Below are positions 1-10,080 of a stretch of 10,080 nt of DNA, piece after piece. Positions within the stretch are counted from its first letter, which is position 1. The number at the start of each line of letters is the position of its first letter. A program made the position numbers and the translations under genes. The DNA is from a virus. The notes beneath the pieces are model-generated. The model was not told the origin of the DNA. It searched no databases and worked only from the letters and a program-made list of their open reading frames with translations. Where the stretch lies: UHGV virus genome UHGV-1553573; one strand, written 5' to 3'.

Positions 1-201
1 TCGTTCTCCTGGTCGCGGCGTTTGATGTATTGCTGGTTTCTTTCCCGTTCATCCAACAATACCAGCGCGATATCTGGCGAAAAGTGCTTCATAAAATCGT
101 TAAGCGCATTAATTCGCTGATCGAAAGGCATTACAGGTGCTTCACCAGCAATTTTTGTTTTTTCAGCGATTTCACGAAGCTTTTGATAATCAATCTTGCT
201 C
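1..201 (-). CDS. Hypothetical protein, 5' part only; continues beyond the left edge of the window
   Basis: Open frame on the minus strand from a GTG at 199-201 to position 1 with no stop; GGAGG about 6 nt upstream; the GTG overlaps the TGA stop of the upstream gene (GTGA), suggesting translational coupling. Translation begins VSKIDYQKLREIAEKTKIAGEAPVMPFDQ. Not in the ORF track because it runs off the window. Confidence 0.3.
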
Positions 202-763
202 ACTGGTTGCCTCCTTTGCGAAGCTGTTCCGCCCATTCTTCTAGGGATTTCTCCGCATATTCACCGGACAGGCCATCAATCGGGTGTGGTTCATTAGCCA
301 ACTCTTCTTTCGCTGACAGAATCATGCGTGTAACGTCGAAAACTTCACGTAAAGACTTATTGATAAATCCGTGATTGAAAGCCGCAGCAAGACGGCTGGC
401 GGTATAGTTAATCCCCTCGTTGCGTGCTTCCGCACGAATTTCAGACAGGAAAGCATCGGTGGCTGGCATATTTCCTGTTGCCTTCATTGCCTCCAAAATA
501 ACCAGAACGCCATCTCGCCCAATCTCCTCGCAGATAACCTCGGTGCTGTCGCCAACAACATCGCAAAATGCCTGAACTGCTTTACGAGCCAGCGCATTCT
601 CCGCAGCCAGCGCATTAGCACGCACCAGTTGCACTTCCAGCTGCGTTGCCAAATCGCTGATCAGCTTTGCCACACTGCGCATATCAACGGCACCACATTC
701 TGCTTTCAGTTCCGAAGCCATCTCATGCCCGGCGGCAACTAACCCTTTGATATTACTTTCCAT
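200..763 (-). CDS. Hypothetical phage protein, 187 aa
   Basis: ORF track entry; ATG at 761-763 with GAGG about 7 nt upstream; co-directional with the replication operon. I do not recognise the family. Confidence 0.55.
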   Translation of the reverse strand: MESNIKGLVAAGHEMASELKAECGAVDMRSVAKLISDLATQLEVQLVRANALAAENALARKAVQAFCDVVGDSTEVICEEIGRDGVLVILEAMKATGNMPATDAFLSEIRAEARNEGINYTASRLAAAFNHGFINKSLREVFDVTRMILSAKEELANEPHPIDGLSGEYAEKSLEEWAEQLRKGGNQ

Positions 764-824
764 CTTTATCCTCGCTTATCCACATAACTTATTGATTACA
801 TTGATAACTAAAAAGATCGTCGAT

Positions 825-1169
825 TCAGAACTCTTCGATTTTCCAGCCACCACCTGCTTTCTTTGGCTTAACAGTTACCCCGATGATTCGGAACGGATAT
901 TGATCTGCGGCGACTTTGGTTTTCACCCTGGCGTCGTCGGTCCAGAAACCTTTCACTTCGTGCAGTTCCATCTCTCCGGTGGCGAGCATCACAGCGAAAT
1001 CTGGCGTATAGAACGTGTTATCAGCTAACCGCAGCTTGATACCCTCGAATCGATACCAGGCGATTTCCCCTGCACGTTTACGCAGCTCAAGGTGCTGGCA
1101 ATACGCAGATTCTGTTTTGTTCATCTGGCCTGTTTTGAGTCGACCAAGAGCCTGTATCTGTTTTCTCAT
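825..1169 (-). CDS. Small phage protein (114 aa) with a PD-(D/E)XK-like motif, putative nuclease fold
   Basis: ORF track entry; ATG at 1167-1169 with AAGGG upstream; the translation contains FYTPDF followed about 15 residues later by ELHEVKG, i.e. a PD...E-x-K arrangement. Confidence 0.55.
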   Translation of the reverse strand: MRKQIQALGRLKTGQMNKTESAYCQHLELRKRAGEIAWYRFEGIKLRLADNTFYTPDFAVMLATGEMELHEVKGFWTDDARVKTKVAADQYPFRIIGVTVKPKKAGGGWKIEEF

Positions 1170-1260
1170 GATTTACCCTTGAGGTAATTAAAAACCACAT
1201 AAGACACGAAATCAATAGATTTTAGAATATTTATTACCCAACAGGTAATTATCAAGACGT
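1170..1260 (-). promoter_or_regulatory. Candidate promoter/operator region for the 825..1169 gene, with two TTACC-N5-GGTAA palindromes
   Basis: Perfect palindromes at 1173-1187 (TTACC CTTGA GGTAA) and 1234-1248 (TTACC CAACA GGTAA); on the minus strand TTGATA (plus 1250-1255) precedes a 17-nt spacer that is the 1234-1248 palindrome. The -10 hexamer is ambiguous. Confidence 0.4.
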
Positions 1261-1280
1261 AAAAAAATGCGCTATCGCGC
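1261..1280 (-). terminator. Weak candidate intrinsic terminator after the P-like gene
   Basis: On the minus strand a 4-bp GC stem (GCGC, loop GATA, GCGC) is followed by ATTTTTTT, just downstream of the stop at 1286-1288. The stem is short. Confidence 0.3.
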
Positions 1281-1285
1281 TGGTA

Positions 1286-2068
1286 TTACTTGATAAATCC
1301 TGCCGCCTTTCCCCGCCTGTATTCCTCCATCAGCCACTGCGCCGGTGTTATTCCCCCAAGGGTGGCGGCGTTAGGCATGCACCCGAAACTTCGCCCTGGT
1401 GGATGGTAAACGTCTCTCCCTGTGTCCGGAGGTGTACTCATGGGCTCTCGCTTTGCCTGTATGCCGATCACCGGATCGGGTATCTGCTGTCCGGAAGCTA
1501 CCTTTTTCGCCCAATCATCGAGCAGCCTGCGCGCGTGTTTCTCAACCTCAATCTCGCTAAGCTGGCGCTGATACATTGCACGGCGGGTATCACATACGAC
1601 CCAGTACATAACCGGATGTCGCCACGGGAATCTTTCGGGACCACCAGGATATAAACTTTTTTCCTTGCTGTACCGGTGAAACTCCGCCATCACATCGTCA
1701 ATGGTGACGCCAAGAACCATCTTGCTGTCTTTGCACCACTTGATGAATTGCCCTGGCGACGGCCAGAACGGAGATTCACTGGCGCGGGCGTGGCGCATAC
1801 CAGCGTTAACCTGTTCCATTGTTGTGATCCCATTCTCCAGAAACGCAAGCATCCATTGTTTTCGAAATTCGTTTAGCTTTCCTTGCTCGCTGATAGCAGC
1901 GATGCTGCCTGGAAATGCAGCCTGTAACTGGACAAACATTTCGTTGAAAATTCTTGCAACCTGCTCCTTCTTTGCCCTTTCATCGTCAGCAGAAGCAACC
2001 GCCGTCGAGTGGTCATGCCCACCACGAAAGCGATCGTACTCATTAAGAAGTTCTGGAGTTGATTTCAT
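1286..2068 (-). CDS. Lambda P-like replication protein (DnaB helicase loader family)
   Basis: Translation contains WMLAFLENGITTMEQVNAGMR and FWPSPGQFIKWC, which I recall as closely matching lambda P; it sits immediately downstream of and overlapping the O-like gene. Start moved from the track's 2080 to the ATG at 2066-2068 (MKSTPELL), which has GAGGTG 5-8 nt upstream. Confidence 0.8.
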   Translation of the reverse strand: MKSTPELLNEYDRFRGGHDHSTAVASADDERAKKEQVARIFNEMFVQLQAAFPGSIAAISEQGKLNEFRKQWMLAFLENGITTMEQVNAGMRHARASESPFWPSPGQFIKWCKDSKMVLGVTIDDVMAEFHRYSKEKSLYPGGPERFPWRHPVMYWVVCDTRRAMYQRQLSEIEVEKHARRLLDDWAKKVASGQQIPDPVIGIQAKREPMSTPPDTGRDVYHPPGRSFGCMPNAATLGGITPAQWLMEEYRRGKAAGFIK

Positions 2069-2894
2069 CCCACACCTCATCTATCCAGTCAGTGTTATGC
2101 CAGTCAAGGCTCTTTCTGACTTCACCTGATTTCTGTCTACAGAACTGGATGCGCCTTGCCAGCTTCTGCTCCCACTGTGCCTGATGGTATGCCTTACCCT
2201 CAGCCATCCAGTAAATTCTGAACTCTGCAAGTTCCTGTGCCGTTGGCAGACTGTCCAGGTAGATTCCCTGCAATGAGCTTTTCCGAAGAAAGTCATCTGA
2301 TGGCTGCCATTGTTCATGCATGACAAATTTGCCTAATTGCCCTGGCCCACCAGGAGGAACAAAGTTATTCATCACGGCGTTGTTTGCGCCGGGGTCATGA
2401 GGCACAGAATCCCCGGTTTTTGTCCTGCTCTCCCTCTCTTGGTTAAATGACTGGTTATATGACTGGTTCTGGATCCCGTTTTTGGGATCATTCAACATCC
2501 CGTTTTTGGGATCATTCAACATCCCGTTTTTGGGTATATTCCCGTTTTCGGGAACATTACCGTTTTCGGGAACATTACCGTTTTCGGGTTCATTACACCC
2601 TTCTAGGTCGCCTTTAATGTTCCCGTTTTTGGTTATATTAAGAGAGAAAACCCGCACTCTTTTTGTCGCTCCCTTTCTCTCTCCGGTATCTGAAATAAGC
2701 CCCATTTTCATGAGCGATATAAGTCCGGCCTGCACGGTTTTTTTATTCAGGCAAGTGTCTTTAACGAGGCGTTCTATGCTGGGGTAGCAGAGGTTATATT
2801 CATCGGCTCTGTCAGCCATCGAGAGCAGTATGAGCTTTAATGATGAGCTACCTGGATCTGTCTCCCAGGCCCAATCTGTTGCATGTCTGCTCAT
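2043..2894 (-). CDS. Lambda O-like replication initiator (iteron-binding origin protein)
   Basis: 283-aa ORF with GGAG 9 nt upstream of the ATG at 2892-2894; its central part is encoded by the iteron array and gives the peptide repeats NGNVPENGNVPENGNIPKNGMLNDPKNGMLNDPKNG; followed by the P-like gene with a 26-nt overlap, as in lambdoid O-P pairs. Confidence 0.8.
   Translation of the reverse strand: MSRHATDWAWETDPGSSSLKLILLSMADRADEYNLCYPSIERLVKDTCLNKKTVQAGLISLMKMGLISDTGERKGATKRVRVFSLNITKNGNIKGDLEGCNEPENGNVPENGNVPENGNIPKNGMLNDPKNGMLNDPKNGIQNQSYNQSFNQERESRTKTGDSVPHDPGANNAVMNNFVPPGGPGQLGKFVMHEQWQPSDDFLRKSSLQGIYLDSLPTAQELAEFRIYWMAEGKAYHQAQWEQKLARRIQFCRQKSGEVRKSLDWHNTDWIDEVWDEINSRTS
2472..2640. 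repeat. Replication origin iterons inside the O-like gene
   Basis: About seven direct repeats with core CCCGTTTT(T)GGG: three at 24-bp spacing (2472, 2497, 2521) with palindromic arms GATCCC/GGGATC, three at 18-19-bp spacing (2541, 2560, 2578) with arms TTCCCG/CGGGAA, and one more at 2621-2640. On the O-coding strand they read TCCCAAAAACGGGA, resembling the lambda ori iteron as I recall it. A flanking ATGACTGGTT direct repeat lies at 2447-2456 and 2459-2468. Confidence 0.75.
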
Positions 2895-3110: not shown

Positions 3111-3206
3111 GGTAAGCCCTGTTATTAGTATTGGGGTTACGGTCATTTTGTGCTGACACAAAAAAAAGATCAACCAGATTTGGTTTTTTATTACCTTTGA
3201 GGTACG

Positions 3207-3238
3207 AATAGATATGAAAAGACCGCCGGGTGGCGGTC
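3207..3238 (-). terminator. Intrinsic terminator downstream of the Cro-like gene
   Basis: 7-bp GC-rich stem GACCGCC / GGCGGTC (3221-3238, loop 3228-3231) followed on the minus strand by TTTTCATATCTATT; lies 23 nt past the stop at 3261-3263. Confidence 0.55.
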
Positions 3239-3260
3239 TACAGAGGGTTGTAGCTGGATA

Positions 3261-3491
3261 TCATGAGTAGAAGAAGTATGCCAGTTCTGCTTTTGAGCGC
3301 AGCCATTGTCTTGTTTTACAGGCTTTAAAAAGCCCATTCATCAATACCTTACCTGGCATTTTGCGCTTACCTGTTAAGTGAGTCTGGATATAGTGACTCG
3401 TCGTTCCGGCTTCCTGTGCGAAGGCTTCACGCTCATCCGGAGTAAGTGCAAGCCAGTGCTTTTTGAAATCGAAATGTCCGTTATCGCTCAT
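3261..3491 (-). CDS. Cro/YdaS-like small HTH DNA-binding protein (76 aa)
   Basis: ORF track entry; the segment FAQEAGTTSHYIQTHLTGKRKMP resembles the Cro/YdaS-type helix-turn-helix; transcribed divergently from the repressor-like gene and upstream of the O/P genes, i.e. the cro position. Confidence 0.6.
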   Translation of the reverse strand: MSDNGHFDFKKHWLALTPDEREAFAQEAGTTSHYIQTHLTGKRKMPGKVLMNGLFKACKTRQWLRSKAELAYFFYS

Positions 3492-3645
3492 AGCTATTGC
3501 CTGATATTTATTTCAGATAATAAATATTCACCCATAAGGTAACAAAAATCAAGGATAGTTACCTATGGGGTGCATTTACCTGTTGGGTAATATTGCTTTA
3601 AATTGAATCATCTACTGATTCATATATGAGGCGATTTTCCAGAAA
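3492..3645. promoter_or_regulatory. Divergent promoter/operator region between the Cro-like and repressor-like genes (OR-like)
   Basis: Three clustered palindromes of the TTACC-N5-GGTAA family at 3528-3542 (TCACC CATAA GGTAA), 3559-3573 (TTACC TATGG GGTGC, degenerate) and 3576-3590 (TTACC TGTTG GGTAA, perfect); a perfect 9-bp AT-rich inverted repeat at 3504-3512/3519-3527; AT-rich hexamers usable as -10/-35 on both strands. Confidence 0.6.
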
Positions 3646-4230
3646 ATGAAAAGTATCCAGGACGTCCGCAGGCAAAATCTCAACGACTTGATCGACCGTG
3701 AATTCAATGGTGTTCAGACGCGGATGGCAGAAAAACTTGGAACTCAGGCAAATCTGGTAAACCGCTGGGCTCTTGGCAAGAAGGTTATCGGCGACCAGGT
3801 TGCACGAAAAATTGAAGCTGCCGCCAATAAACCCCGTAACTGGCTTGATATCGATCGCTCGCTTTCTCAGGAAGGTTTTCAGCCTGTCGGCCCAAGCGAC
3901 ATTGGTCAGCTGGCGGCTCACAACCTGGAACGCTGGATGAGCGAAAGCCGCGACCTTTCAACGCAGGGAAAACTTCACCGCGCATCCGGCGTCGCCCAGG
4001 TGACAATCAGTCGCCTGTTAAACAATGAGGTCAGCGTTTCCATTTCCACCCTGGAGAATGTTGCATCCGCATTCGGGCGTCACGGCTATGAATTACTGAT
4101 TCACCCGCACGACCCTGCGACCATCAACTATGACCGCTCGCGCTACGCATTGTTACCCGAAACCGAGAAAGCAAAGATCGAAAGTTACATTGAATTTGTC
4201 ATCAACCAGAACGAAAAAAACAAACAATAA
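3646..4230 (+). CDS. Tandem helix-turn-helix (XRE-type) repressor-like protein, 194 aa, with no peptidase domain
   Basis: Two HTH-like segments: QTRMAEKLGTQANLVNRWALGKK near the N-terminus and ASGVAQVTISRLLNNEVSVSISTLENVASAFG in the second half. No S24-peptidase-like C-terminal domain is apparent. Sits in the cI position; weak or absent Shine-Dalgarno before the ATG at 3646. Confidence 0.7.
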   Translation: MKSIQDVRRQNLNDLIDREFNGVQTRMAEKLGTQANLVNRWALGKKVIGDQVARKIEAAANKPRNWLDIDRSLSQEGFQPVGPSDIGQLAAHNLERWMSESRDLSTQGKLHRASGVAQVTISRLLNNEVSVSISTLENVASAFGRHGYELLIHPHDPATINYDRSRYALLPETEKAKIESYIEFVINQNEKNKQ

Positions 4231-4250: not shown

Positions 4251-4277
4251 AAGCCGCCTTCTGGCGGCTTTTTTATT
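4251..4277 (+). terminator. Rho-independent terminator after the repressor-like gene
   Basis: 8-bp stem AAGCCGCC / GGCGGCTT (4251-4258 and 4263-4270, loop TTCT) followed by TTTTATT; 21 nt after the stop codon. Confidence 0.7.
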
Positions 4278-4287
4278 GCCTATACTA

Positions 4288-4364
4288 TTACCTAATGGGT
4301 AATTTTTTTAACTCATATCTATTGACATCAAACCAAATACGCATAATTATTACCTCAACGGTAA
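4288..4364 (+). promoter_or_regulatory. Strong rightward promoter with two flanking operator palindromes (OL/PL-like)
   Basis: Perfect -35 TTGACA at 4322-4327, 15-16 nt spacer, then ATAATT/TAATTA at 4343-4349; perfect palindromes at 4288-4302 (TTACC TAATG GGTAA) upstream and 4350-4364 (TTACC TCAAC GGTAA) over the predicted start site. Confidence 0.6.
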
Positions 4365-9835: not shown

Positions 9836-9948
9836 AATTCACCCGTATAGAAACCATTTTCATGACGGTATGAGAGTATACCTTTAAGGTAATACCGTCA
9901 CCTGTACCGACGAAAAATATGGTGTAGAGTGAATAGAAATGAATACAT
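9836..9948 (-). promoter_or_regulatory. Integrase upstream region: candidate int promoter, operator-like palindrome and nested inverted repeats (possible att-proximal sequence)
   Basis: On the minus strand TATACT (plus 9875-9880) is a near-consensus -10; ATACC TTTAA GGTAA at 9878-9892 is a one-mismatch member of the operator family; a 9-bp inverted repeat TGACGGTAT / ATACCGTCA (9863-9871 and 9892-9900) brackets it. Confidence 0.35.
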
Positions 9949-9979: not shown

Positions 9980-10027
9980 TTAAATTAGTATCTGAATAGG
10001 AATGAGTTGCTATGAGTTAGCTGTTAA

Positions 10028-10080
10028 TCATTCCCACTCAATGGTAGCTGGCGGCTTGCCGCTGATGTCATACACCACGC
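10028..10080 (-). CDS. 3' end of a probable chromosomal gene (last 16 codons only)
   Basis: Minus-strand frame reads VVYDISGKPPATIEWE then stop (TGA at plus 10028-10030), followed 50 nt downstream by the terminator. Too short to identify. Confidence 0.25.
   Translation of the reverse strand, partial: VVYDISGKPPATIEWE

Follow-up and report, generated by a model that had tools for sequence, protein, structure and literature searches.

The RefSeq record of Salmonella phage epsilon15 (NC_004775.2) lists seven 'protein_bind: repressor' sites, marked 'lysogeny', which are predictions and share the consensus ATTACC-N5-GGTAAT. The sites were reportedly predicted by Kropinski et al. in 2007, and the Rep/Ant switch of Salmonella phage SPC32H (PDB 5d50 and 5d4z) is said to come from Kim et al. 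in 2016. In lambda, the nin region past P contains the tR2 terminators and is expressed by N-antiterminated read-through from PR. As summarised in two papers, SPC32H Rep binds DNA as a tetramer whose DNA-binding dimer pairs are drawn from separate dimers, and one such tetramer is enough for repression; its tetramerisation domain is of the looping type, the Ant tetramer disassembles it, and control is exerted via this antirepressor and not by self-cleavage (PMC9638917, PMC9986798). The paper on the related phage ZX5 defines no operators. Known already, therefore, are the kind of operator discussed below, the homologous site in epsilon15, marked ever since that genome was annotated, and a repressor family with solved structures. 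New are a proximal site that lies over a ribosome-binding site, the paralogy of the locus with PL, its conservation throughout the genus despite swaps of the flanking genes, and its prevalence.

An epsilon15-like prophage, its repressor and its right-arm genes

The window, a stretch of 10,080 nucleotides from UHGV virus genome UHGV-1553573, is about 97% identical to phages phiV10, PAS61, phiv142-3 and ZX5. The att core described for these phages, ATTGAGTGGGAATGATT (PMC9782041), is found at positions 10026-10042. These matches identify the window as an epsilon15/phiV10-type podovirus prophage of the genus Uetakevirus and not a lambda-type phage. The lambda frame in which the locus had originally been interpreted consequently gives way to that of an epsilon15-like podovirus whose repressor is a homolog of SPC32H Rep.

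This repressor, encoded by rep (3646..4230, plus strand; 194 residues), matches SPC32H Rep (PDB 5d50) over residues 1-190 with an E value of 4e-42 and 42-43% identity. It contains two HTH-type domains, and a Pfam search gave HTH-type families only, with no self-cleavage domain detected. The Reps of the window, SPC32H and epsilon15 are about 43% identical overall, and all three carry an invariant N-terminal NLVNRW that is probably the recognition helix; this invariance fits the half-site that the three phages have in common. Indeed, the TTACC half-site is common to all relatives in the family. A scan of IMG/VR for a distant Rep with a changed half-site returned only Reps that were 100% identical, and tblastn with Rep against the phage database yielded the same lineage plus a single Pseudomonas outgroup. 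In that outgroup phage, PseuP_224, the N-terminal domain of cI is 39% identical to Rep residues 4-68, the C-terminal part is unrelated to Rep, and three TTACC-N4-GGTAA palindromes flank the gene. An antirepressor gene was not found within the window; in relatives it is located near the tailspike gene.

The unit upstream of the locus ends with a P-like replication gene (1286..2080, minus strand; PF06992, E 4e-53), which is labelled 'replication protein P' in phiV10, PAS61 and E. coli genomes and whose DNA matches were confined to epsilon15-like phages. The O-like gene of this unit encodes DnaT and HTH domains. Downstream lies a gene for a 114-residue protein (825..1169, minus strand), the first of the putatively regulated unit, which belongs to DUF1064, a member of the PD-(D/E)XK superfamily with unknown function (PMC1189080, PMC3424549). 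The match to PF06356 (E 3.6e-7) reaches 31 bits against a gathering cut-off of 24.7, and both gene calls of the original prediction, P-like and PD-(D/E)XK-like, were upheld. Residues E20, P56, D57, E71 and K73, which form an E...PD...ExK pattern, are invariant in 25 homologs. A weak match to T7 endonuclease I (E 0.22) aligns the PD..ExK residues with D55/E65/K67, which we take to be the catalytic-motif residues of that enzyme. The AF2 model (pLDDT 85) gave Bax1, archaeal Hjc and VRR-NUC as best folds, with probability ~1 and E values of 0.01-0.1 that speak for likeness at the fold level only, and the protein falls into phrog_190, 'Holliday junction resolvase', with an E value of 6e-43. Furthermore, RuvC fills the DUF1064 slot in epsilon15, Tyrion and PAT1, a swap that supports a role of the DUF1064 protein in junction processing. 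On the strength of these sequence and model comparisons, the 114-residue protein is a probable junction-resolving or recombination nuclease.

The second gene of the unit (200..763, minus strand) encodes a 187-residue protein that matches phrog_614 (E 2e-61), a PHROG of unknown function, and is named Eae or eae-like in PAS61 and phiV10; a PDB sequence search with it gave no match. Taken as a whole, the locus is an ordinary feature of the epsilon15-like family, and it was found in 529 of 5,426 complete E. coli genomes.

A candidate terminator, paired predicted operators and a putative promoter block

Read on the minus strand from 1290 to 1165, the cassette presents in order the stop codon of the P-like gene, a terminator, a first palindrome (site A), an A/T-rich block, candidate -35 and -10 elements, a second palindrome (site B) and the ATG of the DUF1064 gene. 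The terminator candidate (1261..1280, minus strand) is small and of the intrinsic type, with GCGC (1280-1277), a GATA loop, GCGC (1272-1269), one A and a T7 run (1267-1261); its RNA fold has a free energy of -8.4 kcal/mol and a z score of -2.0. It was left uncalled by the consensus scanner because its stem has only 4 bp, which is below the scanner's threshold of 5 pairs. The phiV10 record annotates the matching hairpin as a putative rho-independent terminator. In an alignment of 11 diverse phages, the stem and T-run are kept and the loop varies, the lone change being an A-to-G between stem and T-run in one phage; among 69 unique E. coli-type copies there is no polymorphism (pi 0). Such strict conservation argues that the terminator works, and the weak terminator that had been predicted at this position is indeed present. 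A variable stretch of about 10-11 bp separates it from site A.

Site B, the predicted proximal operator (1173-1187; TTACCCTTGAGGTAA), reads TTACC-TCAAG-GGTAA and is a perfect match to the motif TTACC-N5-GGTAA, as is site A, the predicted distal operator (1234-1248; TTACCCAACAGGTAA). Extended by one base on each side, site A becomes a 17-bp perfect palindrome (1233-1249; ATTACC-TGTTG-GGTAAT on the minus strand). The two sites are 61 bp apart start to start, just as had been noted for two perfect palindromes in this region, and a repeat finder reports an 18-nt direct repeat. Site B also contains the Shine-Dalgarno sequence AAGGG (1180..1176) and is followed, after three nucleotides (ATC), by the DUF1064 ATG at 1169.

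The motif of sites A and B is the one found on both sides of the repressor gene. When up to one mismatch was allowed, eight occurrences were counted in the window where 0.14 were expected, and none of 200 shuffled sequences attained this number; chance palindromes are thereby ruled out. OR (3528..3590), placed between rep and the cro-like gene, comprises sites at 3528-3542 (one mismatch), 3559-3573 (two mismatches) and 3576-3590 (perfect), and OL/PL (4288..4364, plus strand), just after rep, comprises sites at 4288-4302 and 4350-4364 that are 62 bp apart. A single site with one mismatch (3191-3205) lies just past a tR1-like terminator (3239..3220), before the next rightward gene; whole-genome motif scans found a counterpart in phiV10 at 33112 and none in SPC32H or epsilon15. 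The scan with at most one mismatch also placed a site upstream of int, at 9878. We presume that Rep is the ligand of sites A and B, which would then be additional binding sites for the prophage's own repressor.

Whole-genome scans with at most one mismatch returned 14 sites in phiV10, 18 in SPC32H and 15 in epsilon15. Perfect or one-mismatch sites recur upstream of terS, the head operon, the lysis cassette and int, and further in the antirepressor-tailspike region, at OL and at OR. The perfect copies in intergenic DNA precede the terminase genes and the head operon, adjoin the antirepressor and tailspike genes and surround rep; those before the lysis cassette and int have one mismatch. The 62-bp pair after the replication genes is present in phiV10, SPC32H and epsilon15. 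In SPC32H, all ten perfect sites are intergenic, where intergenic DNA makes up 6.8% of the genome (p about 2e-12). The predicted operator design is genome-wide, and most operon starts in the epsilon15-like family carry a putative operator. The earlier suggestion that the products of this particular unit need special silencing, as toxic proteins would, loses its footing with operator copies ahead of most operons. The 36 phage-database records with the cassette are the same set as those with a full-length Rep homolog, a coincidence that is confounded by shared descent.

Between the two sites, the minus strand holds an A/T-rich block that runs from site A to the -35 (1216..1232; AAATATTCTAAAATC), includes an AAAATAT conserved in the 11-phage alignment and is possibly a UP-like element. 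It is followed by a candidate -35, TTGATT (1210..1215, minus strand; within ATCTATTGATT), part of a TATTGA that is invariant in the 11 phages, and, 17 bp further on, by a candidate -10, TTTAAT (1187..1192, minus strand), whose final T doubles as the first of site B. This TTGATT-17-TTTAAT combination scores 9/12; the consensus scanner passed over it because position 2 of the -10 is not the near-universal A. The original prediction had set a TTGATA -35 between the palindromes. That TTGATA (1255..1250) is located outside the pair, between the terminator and site A, and it is TTGATT that stands between them. The scanner match joining TTGATA to AATATT was rejected as a promoter, since it falls in the most variable stretch, where relatives have CTCAAT, CTCGAC and other sequences.

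A template for the promoter block is offered by PL, where TTGACA (4322-4327), a 17-bp gap and AATTAT (4345-4350) are bracketed by the sites at 4288 and 4350, and where the -10 ends at 4350 on the first base of the second OL site. The order at OL/PL is the T-run of the rep terminator (4251-4270), the site at 4288, about 20 bp, ATCTATTGACA, 17 bp, AATTAT and a site, and the cassette is collinear with it: T-run, site, about 20 bp, ATCTATTGA, 17 bp, -10 and site. The ATCTATTGA context is common to the TTGATT of the cassette and the TTGACA of PL. From the start of the site to the start of the -35 there are 33 bp in the cassette versus 34 bp in PL; one nucleotide that relatives have after site A is missing from the window, and for this reason its sites are 61 bp rather than 62 bp apart. 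The PL layout of SPC32H is that of the window. In light of these correspondences, OL/PL is evidently the paralogous template whose layout the cassette copies. It is the PL paralogy together with the strong conservation of the block that leads us to propose TTGATT-17-TTTAAT as a promoter, and the best reading of the locus is an independently repressed transcription unit that would start at the DUF1064 gene.

Conservation and variability of the cassette

We aligned 11 cassettes from phages of Escherichia, Salmonella, Enterobacter and Klebsiella. Little or no change was seen in either pair of arms, in the AAAAT after site A, in the TATTGA or in the AATTACC where the -10 meets site B; the N5 spacers of both sites differ between phages. 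Relatives also differ in the genes around the cassette, with either a P-like or a solely DnaT-like gene before it and either a DUF1064 or a RuvC gene after it; whichever of the latter two follows, the GGTAAATCATG junction persists, and three of the 11 phages show minor variants of it. In phiV10 and PAS61, both sites are kept with intact arms and different spacers.

A second view was obtained from IMG/VR, where 80 loci have a Rep 100% identical to that of the window. The cassette has perfect arms in 75 of these 80, and one more has a single mismatch in site B. Diversity was calculated from 69 unique 900-nt segments, in which pi is 0 for the site A arms, 0.003 for the site B arms and 0.018 for the block from -35 to -10, compared with 0.224 for the N5 of site B and 0.454 for the N5 of site A, which takes the form of 27 different pentamers. 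These values indicate half-sites under purifying selection and a spacer that is free to vary.

Among the identical-Rep loci, the 16 columns made up of the site A spacer, presumed to be uncontacted, and the stretch 5' of it diverge about 20 times faster than the other 861 aligned columns, and their diversity is 6-12 times that of third-codon positions nearby. The distal OL site (4288) is hypervariable like site A, and the perfect OR site (3576) and the proximal OL site are not. Pairs of loci that are identical elsewhere are identical in the 16 hypervariable columns too. We raise, tentatively and with considerable doubt, the idea that in each 62-bp pair the distal operator (site A and OL 4288) is a diversification hot spot. 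If selection and not a mutational quirk were responsible, the operator strength of secondary promoters would be tuned rapidly and independently of the repressor, and such tuning could set induction thresholds or timing or help a prophage to escape co-resident related prophages.

Proposed regulation and known systems

We consider it probable that positions 1170-1285 form a self-contained cassette, composed of a terminator and a PL-like promoter flanked by Rep operators. In this model, the terminator (1261-1280) would end the PR-driven replication unit of cro-like, O-like and P-like genes, and a sigma-70-type promoter, TTGATT(1215..1210)-17-TTTAAT(1192..1187), would restart transcription for a right-arm operon whose first genes are the DUF1064 nuclease gene and the Eae-like gene and which extends beyond the window. 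The two Rep operators would flank this promoter on matching faces of the DNA, 61 bp apart here and 62 bp in relatives, or about six helical turns, with the edge of the -10, the ribosome-binding site and the likely transcription start under site B and, further upstream, the A/T-rich block under site A. Two sites some six turns apart fit one tetramer bridging both; in the lysogen, a single Rep tetramer with two DNA-binding units may occupy the pair, loop the promoter DNA and hold the unit off. Upon induction, an antirepressor would strip Rep from the DNA as in SPC32H, and the promoter would be released along with PL, PR and the other Rep-guarded promoters. We infer Rep binding, looping, promoter activity, terminator efficiency and the nuclease substrate from the comparisons above. 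The repressor-controlled internal promoter and independent module that had been predicted for this locus thus gain computational support from the OR/OL motif, the invariant arms, the PL-like block and the epsilon15 annotation.

Other arrangements of the same elements must be considered. The cassette could lack an internal promoter altogether, with the Rep sites acting as a roadblock or loop that backs up a weak terminator and, in the lysogen, suppresses transcription leaking through from PR, and with the DUF1064 operon expressed by read-through during lytic growth. A -10 candidate that has no A at position 2 and escaped the scanner would fit such an arrangement, as would a 4-bp terminator stem that could be leaky. 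However, a roadblock would not need the TATTGA...17 bp...AAT block, which is as conserved as the arms (pi 0.018) and is spaced from the sites as the -35 and -10 of PL are, and the strictly conserved terminator argues for one that works; we therefore regard this arrangement as unlikely.

The palindromes might also act as RNA, in that a site B hairpin on read-through transcripts would hide the DUF1064 Shine-Dalgarno and impose translational control. Site B does include this sequence and folds as a 6-bp hairpin of -4.2 kcal/mol, but the hairpins are weak and no better than those of shuffled sequences (z -0.87 and -1.8), and the arms never change and show no compensatory pairs, so that it is sequence and not pairing that is conserved. 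Furthermore, the palindrome is found in both orientations within promoter regions, near rep as well as genome-wide, including untranscribed contexts, and a transcript starting after the proposed -10 would leave the left arm of site B outside the mRNA. Such a role is very improbable. Only slightly less so is the notion that the cro-like protein is the main binder and reduces expression of the operon late in the lytic cycle. In lambdoid phages the same operators serve Cro and CI, and the 76-residue product of the cro-like gene (3261..3491) matches a PHROG of transcriptional repressors. Binding by this protein is, however, compatible with the main explanation and does not exclude binding by Rep; the paired 62-bp geometry suits a tetramer with two DNA-binding units, and in epsilon15 the annotation ascribes the sites to the repressor.

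The proposed Rep-operator-flanked promoter resembles the paired, in-phase operators of lac (O1-O3), gal (OE-OI) and pLS20 Rco, each bridged by one tetrameric repressor. As there, identical palindromes lie about six helical turns apart around a promoter, and the Rep family is tetrameric with a looping-type domain, although for the window we infer looping and a 62-bp loop would be short.

Comparison with the closest phages is more direct. Cassette DNA can be aligned across the genus including epsilon15, and the operator sites are predictions in epsilon15 as they are in the window. The epsilon15 site at 35906-35922 is homologous to site A; it follows a terminator, GCGCAGTAGCGCATTTTTTT, past the replication gene and precedes the RuvC gene. 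The RuvC ATG of epsilon15 is bordered by a second, unannotated site (AAATTACCTGAGAGGTAAATCATG), in the way that site B borders the DUF1064 ATG; the epsilon15 record thus marks the distal site only and not the proximal one over the ribosome-binding site. The flanking genes differ, being DnaT-like and RuvC genes in epsilon15 versus P-like and DUF1064 genes in the window. SPC32H has the matching cassette at 35972 and 36034, before its own DUF1064 gene, and this compact, 120-bp terminator-operator-promoter module should be directly testable with the well-characterised Rep/Ant pair of that phage.

The lambda nin region is similar in having accessory and recombination genes, a junction resolvase among them, after the replication genes and a terminator. 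It differs in that the terminator of the window is followed by its own operator-flanked, promoter-like block, a putative entry point for a right-arm operon of recombination and accessory genes. Pfam and PHROG searches of the scanned ORFs, which were part of the window's ORFs, gave no antiterminator family, and control appears to be exerted through dispersed repressor sites rather than an antitermination cascade. In sum, regulation in this common type of E. coli prophage seems not to be lambda-like: numerous separate promoters, each insulated by a terminator, appear to be guarded by a single Rep that is itself controlled by an antirepressor.

Candidate operators in the right arm and near int

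Beyond the post-replication cassette, the window carries further matches to the TTACC-N5-GGTAA motif that the prophage repressor, Rep, is presumed to recognize. A single operator with one mismatch (3191-3205) lies directly after a tR1-like terminator (3239..3220), with the next small rightward gene following it. Phages of the phiV10 type keep this site, and no counterpart of it was found in SPC32H or epsilon15. This pairing may be a third terminator-plus-operator junction, located in the right arm.

An operator-like site that also has one mismatch (TTACCTTAAAGGTAT, 9878-9892, minus strand) is found ahead of int, approximately 45 bp from the start of the gene, and is likewise kept in phiV10, SPC32H, and epsilon15. 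Control of int by Rep is thus possible but ambiguous, because the site is enclosed by a larger inverted repeat, GACGGTA...TACCGTC, and because the epsilon15 record annotates the region upstream of int as containing RNase III and integrase-binding sites.

Positions 10026-10042 match exactly the 17-bp att core (ATTGAGTGGGAATGATT) described in phiV10, epsilon15, and ZX5 (PMC9782041). This match lies approximately 190 bp past the int start, and the window thus extends as far as the att site on the int side of the phage genome. Provided that this phage copy is an integrated prophage, the final 38 bases of the window would be host DNA, namely the 3′ end of guaA according to PMC9782041.

Iterons and DnaA- and IHF-type sequences

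Tandem iterons occupy 2470-2640 within the O-like replication gene, with ATCCCGTTTTTGGGATCATTCAAC followed by CCGTTTTCGGGAACATTA repeats; they presumably constitute the origin of replication. The terminator scanner reported two of these iterons as terminator-like hits. Between the DUF1064 and Eae-like genes, inspection of the sequence alone identified a perfect DnaA-box 9-mer (TTATCCACA, 777-785, plus strand) overlapping an IHF consensus match (AATCAATAAGTTA, about 797..785, minus strand). The equivalent place in epsilon15 holds an annotated IHF site.

Variability and apparent loss of the cassette

When phages sharing an identical repressor are compared, hypervariability is seen in the uncontacted N5 spacer of site A, the distal operator in the cassette (1239-1243; 27 different pentamers, pi 0.45), and in the ~10 bp separating this operator from the terminator T-run (1249-1259). 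The corresponding stretch at the distal OL site (4279-4297) is also hypervariable (pi 0.27), compared with a pi of 0.04-0.07 at nearby third-codon positions and near 0 for the operator arms, terminator, and promoter block.

The cassette is absent from four IMG/VR contigs (L031, L066, L068, and L091) that encode a 100%-identical Rep and have OR and OL, the predicted operators on either side of rep, intact. In L031, L068, and L091, an operator pair lies upstream of terS only 2-5 kb from rep; no such pair was found in L066. These contigs look like deletion derivatives that have partly or wholly lost the replication and right-arm genes.

Operator-like palindromes in a Pseudomonas phage

In the Pseudomonas phage PseuP_224, TTACC-N4-GGTAA palindromes (at 3922, 3961, and 4823) flank a cI gene whose 245-aa product is longer than Rep and has an N-terminal domain homologous to that of Rep. 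The half-site is the same as in the enterobacterial Rep operators, and the spacer is one base shorter.
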